A model generated the notes under the pieces. It saw nothing but the letters and a program-made list of their open reading frames with translations. It ran no database searches and was not told the origin of the DNA. 64,000 bases of DNA from Narcine bancroftii (lineage: Eukaryota), in contig NC_091469.1 of assembly GCF_036971445.1 (NCBI RefSeq), positions 421,538,001-421,602,000 of the forward strand, written 5' to 3'. The position numbers and the translations under genes were made by a program. Positions 24,940-25,206 of the stretch are shown here, piece after piece (within the stretch, counting starts at the first letter, position 1; every line of letters begins with the position of its first letter).

Positions 24940-25206
24940 CACGCTTTGAAGTATTTGTGGGCTAATAATGCTCGCAACCTTGATGGAAGAGCGTTTGTAA
25001 TTTAAATGCCACTATAGTGATCGATCACCGCCAAGAGCATGCAAACTTCGCAGAGAACCTTGCGATTGGCCGCTTGGAGTCACGTGGCGACACTTCACTC
25101 TATATTGATATCATTTTCTTTCAGCTCTATTGAGGAAGTGGGGAAGTTGGCACGGTCCATCCAGGTTGGTGGACAGTCACTTTACATGCTGGTTATCCCA
25201 TGACAG
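24940..25206. promoter_or_regulatory. hoxa1 promoter (probably bidirectional)
   Basis: CpG-rich, with inverted CCAAT at 25065-25069, GTCACGTG at 25079-25086 and palindrome GTGATCGATCAC at 25017-25028. Confidence 0.65.

Follow-up and report, generated by a model that had tools for sequence, protein, structure and literature searches.

Hoxb1-like blocks in the hoxa1/HOTAIRM1 promoter region of a ray: a possible decayed remnant of an ancestral Hox1 autoregulatory element

Hoxa1 and Hoxb1 are the standard example of duplication-degeneration-complementation (DDC). Among the closest described systems to the sequence considered here is the rhombomere 4 (r4) autoregulatory element of Hoxb1 (b1-ARE), reportedly described by Popperl in 1995, the whole of which spans about 150 nt; in the zebrafish hoxb1b duplicate, this element carries point changes. 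Published strings for the mouse element comprise a 49-mer (bioRxiv 10.1101/2022.09.23.509242), a Sox/Oct probe (PMC4551974), and a repeat-3 oligo (PMC7706710). Where repeat 3 starts, the 49-mer as printed has A and the oligo has T; T was used throughout (with A, the last block described below becomes 6 nt and the chain score 24). The DDC model has been applied to Hox1 duplicates (PMC2213666), and zebrafish hoxb1a and hoxb1b partition r4 expression, while a lamprey PG1 gene retains an r4 stripe (bioRxiv 10.1101/571448). In addition, Ciona Hox1 5′ DNA drives r4 expression and responds to Hoxb1 (PMC3227721), and r4 autoregulation looks ancestral to Hox1 genes. Mouse Hoxa1 is said to be without the ARE, and the passages of bioRxiv 10.1101/571448 and PMC2213666 that treat the point state only this much. 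Among the papers searched, a set that excludes most subscription titles such as Tvrdik and Capecchi 2006 and Ferretti 2005, none described a remnant of the ARE at Hoxa1. The phenomenon is nonetheless already known in kind, both for decayed paralogous Hox enhancers and for orthologous regions of HOTAIRM1, the locus that sits between Hoxa1 and Hoxa2 across chordates, as traced by synteny (PMC6784235). The paralogous enhancers of Hoxa2 and Hoxb2 offer a precedent for block-wise paralogy, consisting of short colinear blocks separated by dissimilar spacers (PMC6416258).

The window, that is, the whole stretch of DNA analyzed, comprises 64,000 nt of Narcine bancroftii (NC_091469.1, 421,538,001 to 421,602,000) and represents the 3′ end of a batoid HoxA cluster, as judged from homeobox ORFs for hoxa3, hoxa2, and hoxa1 (Table 1). 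The gene downstream of the ARE-like stretch is batoid hoxa1: identity to its exon 1 amounts to 92% for stingray HoxA1, 84% for horn shark HoxA1, and 40-43% for chondrichthyan HoxB1-type proteins, and its best protein match sits in a cluster of nine batoid HoxA1 proteins. When hoxb1 DNA was sought by means of the vertebrate Hox1 N-terminus, none of 80 metagenome loci carried it, and viral and prokaryote contigs likewise yielded no hoxb1 DNA. Beyond the HoxA cluster, the window holds many ORF fragments resembling LINE reverse transcriptase (35400-64000, judged by eye), the longest run of such pieces being 60913-63044.

Table 1. Coordinates of features at the 3′ end of the ray HoxA cluster (positions in the window)
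Feature	Position	Strand	Remarks
hoxa3 homeobox ORFs	12145-14913		
hoxa2 homeobox ORFs	19406-21051		
HOTAIRM1 conserved region 2 (Rfam RF01976)	22435-22639	-	95.7 bits, E 1.7e-11
HOTAIRM1 conserved region 1 (RF01975), candidate match	24887-25022	-	21.8 bits vs gathering score 70
R2-like block	24946-24952	+	equals mouse Hoxb1 repeat 2 in its 3′ part; Pbx half-site missing
Sox/Oct-like pair	24953-24966	+	Sox core retained; pair one base short of canonical; first two Oct bases lacking
Spacer	24967-24980	+	14 nt vs 10 nt in Hoxb1; sequence unlike Hoxb1
Repeat-3-like Pbx/Hox site	24981-24993	+	11/13 to published R3 oligo
AT-rich block	25000-25013	.	14/14 between ray and mammalian consensus; holds 8-bp AT palindrome
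Perfect 12-bp palindrome	25017-25028	.	chance-level
Likely core promoter	25063-25107	+	motif scan
Inverted CCAAT box	25063-25071		
E-box	25079-25086		
TATA-like stretch	25100-25107		
hoxa1 coding region, two exons	25207-26607	+	ATG 25207; second exon ends 26607

An initial annotation had proposed a vestigial paralogue of the Hoxb1 ARE upstream of hoxa1. The letters it named are present at their sites, including the palindrome, and the mouse string it gave agrees with the published strings, apart from the one R3 base on which the printed versions differ. The colinear order it described is likewise borne out, in that exact blocks of 7, 5, 6, and 7 nt (24946-24952, 24954-24958, 24961-24966, and 24981-24987; 25 nt in total) follow the mouse order R2-Sox/Oct-R3. 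By hand count, 33 of 49 mouse positions match, with gaps of 2, 1, and 4, and the net distance from R2 to R3 is 1 nt greater than in mouse. About 26 of the 35 motif positions are retained, also by hand count, a level that slow neutral decay might leave. The blocks lie 214-261 bp upstream of the hoxa1 ATG. Transcription of hoxa1 probably starts near 25130, which would place the stretch about 185-140 bp 5′ of the start; a location close to the 5′ end of a paralogue-group-1 gene is shared with zebrafish, where the hoxb1a sites are located 250-150 bp upstream of the start (PMC4061917). The ray stretch resembles the Hoxb1 ARE in the order R2-Sox-Oct-R3, the strand, the position 5′ of a group-1 gene, and the R3-like site. 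In contrast, it belongs to hoxa1, its R2 has no Pbx half, R1 is missing, the Sox/Oct pair is one base short and has no Oct 5′ bases, the spacer is longer, and the layout varies among rays. A check for local repeats revealed nothing of note.

According to the initial annotation, the Pbx/Hox cores are damaged. This holds for the R2 position, which has no TGAT, but the R3-like 9-mer (24981-24989) is not clearly damaged because it fits WGATKGAWG, a pattern that also covers mouse R2 and R3; at base 8 it carries the A found in mouse R2. The consensus given in PMC8846413, in the part concerned, has T/A at position 5; mouse R3 itself would fail it, and G/T was therefore used. WGATKGAWG is no rarity, its 7 occurrences across the window comparing with an expectation of 8.19, and instead of three Hox/Pbx repeats, a single exact occurrence (24981) lies within 24750-25210. 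An R1-like site with fewer than 2 mismatches is absent upstream of the blocks in the motif scan. The Sox/Oct composite is broken: at 24953-24966, no canonical composite was detected at up to 2 mismatches, a threshold passed by 14 matches in the whole window. A second Sox/Oct-like 14-mer at 24994-25007 (2 mismatches) was rejected, as these 14 matches compare with 16.4 expected by chance. The Prep/Meis pattern TGRCAR is absent from the stretch, the only scan match being at 25201. A five-base Meis/Prep-like half-site occurs on the minus strand at 25007-25011, inside the invariant AT-rich block. The Hoxb1 Prep/Meis site, which we take to lie just 3′ of R3, could correspond to this half-site. Prep/Meis sites near R3 are named in PMC8846413. 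A positive control is provided elsewhere in the window by the established Hox/Pbx r4 element in Hoxa2 exon 1, intact at 19551-19559 (-), which fits WGATKGAWG.

The annotation also regarded the palindrome as supplying a Pbx/Hox site on both strands. The palindrome is present and perfect, but it is not special: perfect palindromes of at least 12 bp number 22 in the window, with 19.9 expected from shuffles, of which 37 in 100 reach 22, and for TGATNNAT the count of 71 compares with an expectation of 71.25. With both frequencies at chance, its role as a two-strand Pbx/Hox site was rejected. Only 2 of 6 bases in its left half agree with the mammalian HOTAIRM1_1 consensus. The palindrome also fits a CUT-homeodomain motif.

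It should be considered whether a still-working, low-affinity Hox1/Pbx site persists here and confers some auto- or cross-regulation of ray hoxa1 in r4, which on the sequence at hand appears quite improbable. The 9-mer fits the same pattern as the Hoxa2 exon-1 element, which is proven (PMC2425489), such a 9-mer is expected on the plus strand of 300 bp in about 2% of cases by chance, the Meis/Prep-like half-site falls within the invariant block, and the proximal region diverges less among rays than the upstream flank (48/483 vs 41/277). Against this stand the single site in place of three, the broken Sox/Oct composite, a TGAT half that is altered in the mammalian consensus, and the dependence of Hoxa2 r4 activity on several cooperating sites, as described in the same paper. 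The ray stretch is probably not a working r4 switch.

A more serious alternative is that the likeness to the Hoxb1 ARE results from chance together with words shared by Hox promoters, and that the stretch is merely a conserved hoxa1/HOTAIRM1 promoter region, a reading to which we give somewhat less than an even chance. To evaluate it, null distributions were generated by shuffling with the base composition of mouse or by sampling actual DNA of the window; the observed alignment and chain scores are hand counts and thus lower bounds. In Smith-Waterman alignments under four scoring schemes over the 300 bp before the ATG, 886, 388, 234, and 402 of 3000 shuffles equaled or exceeded the observed score (p = 0.30, 0.13, 0.08, and 0.13), which is not significant. 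Over a grid of 60 scoring schemes, 3 gave p ≤ 0.05 (best 18/800) and 57 lay above it. Each motif taken singly is also at chance frequency, which fits this reading. The full 20-mer R3 oligo scores at chance (2407/8000 shuffles), while for parts of the R3-like site, 11/13 was reached by 52 and 12/16 by 127 of 8000 shuffles in 300 bp.

A different picture emerges from a chain score that sums colinear exact blocks and ignores spacers, a statistic that was picked after the match had been seen. It was reached by 1 of 5000 composition shuffles in 300, 500, and 1000 bp, by 19-22 of 3000 over the whole hoxa2-hoxa1 interval, and, for a score of 25 on the plus strand of the whole window, by 27-44 of 300. 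Among 8300 real window 57-mers, 2-9 matched it at k=5, 6-7 at k=6, 90-187 at k=4, and 68-77 at k=7. To allow for the choice of query, a 150-nt query was let contribute its best 57 nt, upon which the counts were 8/1500 and 12/1652 at k=5, 12/1500 and 10/1652 at k=6, 70/1500 and 59/1652 at k=7, and 273/1500 and 288/1652 at k=4. The corresponding p values are 0.5-0.8% at k=5 and 6, and 4-18% at k=4 or 7. The values at k=5 and 6, which include the real-DNA null, speak against chance, as do the facts that gene, strand, order, and distance are all right and that the matches fall on factor sites and the mismatches on the spacer. Under the refuting test set in the initial annotation, alignment score against shuffled sequence, the four standard schemes give p 0.08-0.30. 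Because the statistics are mixed and the chain statistic was chosen post hoc, the Hoxb1 likeness of the ray stretch is suggestive rather than settled.

Related genomes bear on the same question. All three compared carry 7 extra bases behind 24952, such that 8 nt separate the first block from the second in these relatives, as compared with 1 nt in the window and 3 nt in mouse. The extra bases are the same as window positions 24965-24971, so that these relatives carry a short direct repeat. Since almost all of their differences are common to the three, they are counted as one clade, and the indel may be a gain there or a loss here. If the insertion is included and shifts are limited to 4, the chain score is no higher than 18 (133/5000). 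This instability of block spacing among rays accords with the chance reading. One relative differs at 48 of 483 positions within 24694-25176, at 41 of 277 within 24350-24626, and at 8 of 151 within 25150-25300; in two relatives, 24627-24693 is replaced, and the flanking 24350-24626 is still alignable among rays. Together with the 5/9 agreement of the R3-like 9-mer described below, the insertion in 3/3 relatives suggests that the ARE-like layout is under no constraint, in favor of a decayed remnant.

What the stretch is, apart from its ARE-like blocks, is indicated by HOTAIRM1. A match to conserved region 2 exceeds the Rfam gathering score by a wide margin (95.7 vs 37), and region 1 was therefore sought beside the promoter. 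The region 1 match has E 7.3 over 4227 families and E 2.2 in a 301-bp search; it is the only Rfam match in 24300-25300 and is absent from the results of a 4.3-kb search. The first 56 model columns (25022-24967) align without gaps at 37/56 identities by hand count, with a binomial p of about 2e-7 to 6e-5 over 2002 positions, and model positions 57-125 align poorly. Given that the stretch aligns with region 1 and that region 2 lies 2.3 kb away, it appears to be the hoxa1/HOTAIRM1 promoter region. The two regions are in order and antisense between hoxa1 and hoxa2. The ray matches share with the Rfam HOTAIRM1 families the minus strand, the hoxa1-hoxa2 location, the region order, and the invariant core, but ray region 1 is far under the gathering score. 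Both the region 1 alignment and the AT-rich block escaped the initial annotation; for this block, a TATA-like or POU/Meis-like identity is a guess. Recognition of both regions at the sequence level in a cartilaginous fish would extend the lncRNA locus traced by synteny in PMC6784235, where the terms tried retrieved no mention of this group.

The mammalian HOTAIRM1_1 consensus also illuminates the blocks. None of the R2, Sox, and Oct block words occurs in the printed consensus; these blocks lie in the poorly aligned part, where the R2-like block falls in a model gap. The spacer, in turn, is identical at 10 of 14 positions by hand count. That three of four blocks are missing from the mammalian consensus, yet a spacer unlike that of Hoxb1 is conserved, again favors chance. 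The R3-like 9-mer agrees at 5 of 9 positions, with its TGAT half altered, which does not differ significantly from 32/47 elsewhere in the alignment (p 0.47). The ray departs from the R3 oligo at 4 of 16 positions; at 3 of these the mammalian consensus departs from the ray in turn, and at 2 of the 3 it equals Hoxb1 by hand count, a weak pointer to common origin. Across gnathostomes, as represented by the mammalian consensus and the three related genomes, the ARE sites are not conserved.

Hoxa1 and HOTAIRM1 probably share a promoter. In human cells, HOTAIRM1 acts on HOXA chromatin (PMC5388432); the words 'bidirectional' and 'divergent' do not appear in the text of that source. The ray stretch is best read as the upstream promoter region of hoxa1, likely part of a two-way promoter of hoxa1/HOTAIRM1 type, from whose CCAAT/E-box core transcription may proceed in both directions. 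A CCAAT and E-box pair at 12066-12100, on both strands, precedes the first hoxa3 coding exon and forms the same module as that of hoxa1.

Within such a promoter, the Hoxb1-like blocks stand an even chance of being the decayed remnant of an ancestral Hox1 autoregulatory element. They are likely inherited by common descent because of their position, the apparent ancestry of r4 autoregulation, and the block-wise paralogy known from Hoxa2/Hoxb2. Autoregulation in r4 would have been lost with the R2 Pbx half-site, the Oct half-site, and R1, and the trace may have survived owing to slow change of ray DNA and to promoter constraint, with lasting constraint acting on the AT-rich block and the spacer rather than on the ARE-like words. 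The fossil interpretation in the initial annotation is plausible on account of the colinear blocks, their position, and the Hoxa2/Hoxb2 precedent, but is not established, as standard local alignment is not significant and the layout is unstable among rays. Like those enhancers, the ray stretch shows a block-wise HoxA-HoxB likeness; however, the Hoxa2/Hoxb2 cores are intact, conserved as far as lamprey, and reporter-tested, whereas the ray cores are damaged and statistically borderline. As with zebrafish hoxb1a/hoxb1b, one Hox1 duplicate would have lost autoregulation, although the teleost duplication is much younger, and the ray case would date to the HoxA/HoxB split. More tentatively, and with somewhat less than even odds, the pre-duplication Hox1 gene may have had an R2-Sox/Oct-R3-(Prep/Meis) array, whose skeleton at Hoxa1, readable in slowly evolving rays and faint in mammals, became as a dead enhancer the 5′ end of the HOTAIRM1 region.

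If the remnant is genuine, a readable trace implies loss from Hoxa1 and not gain by Hoxb1, a Sox/Oct-containing layout predates the HoxA/HoxB split, and the textbook subfunctionalization of Hoxa1 and Hoxb1 acquires direct sequence evidence. It would also offer a short testable substrate. Early hoxa1 expression could be driven in the ray, as in mouse, by a 3′ DR5 retinoic-acid element, which is typical of Hoxa1 regulation in mouse (bioRxiv 10.1101/571448): exact DR5 patterns occur at 29407-29423 (+), 3′ of hoxa1, and at 8979-8995 (+), 5′ of the hoxa3 coding exons, the former being the candidate for this role. An exact DR1 pattern is found at 29620.
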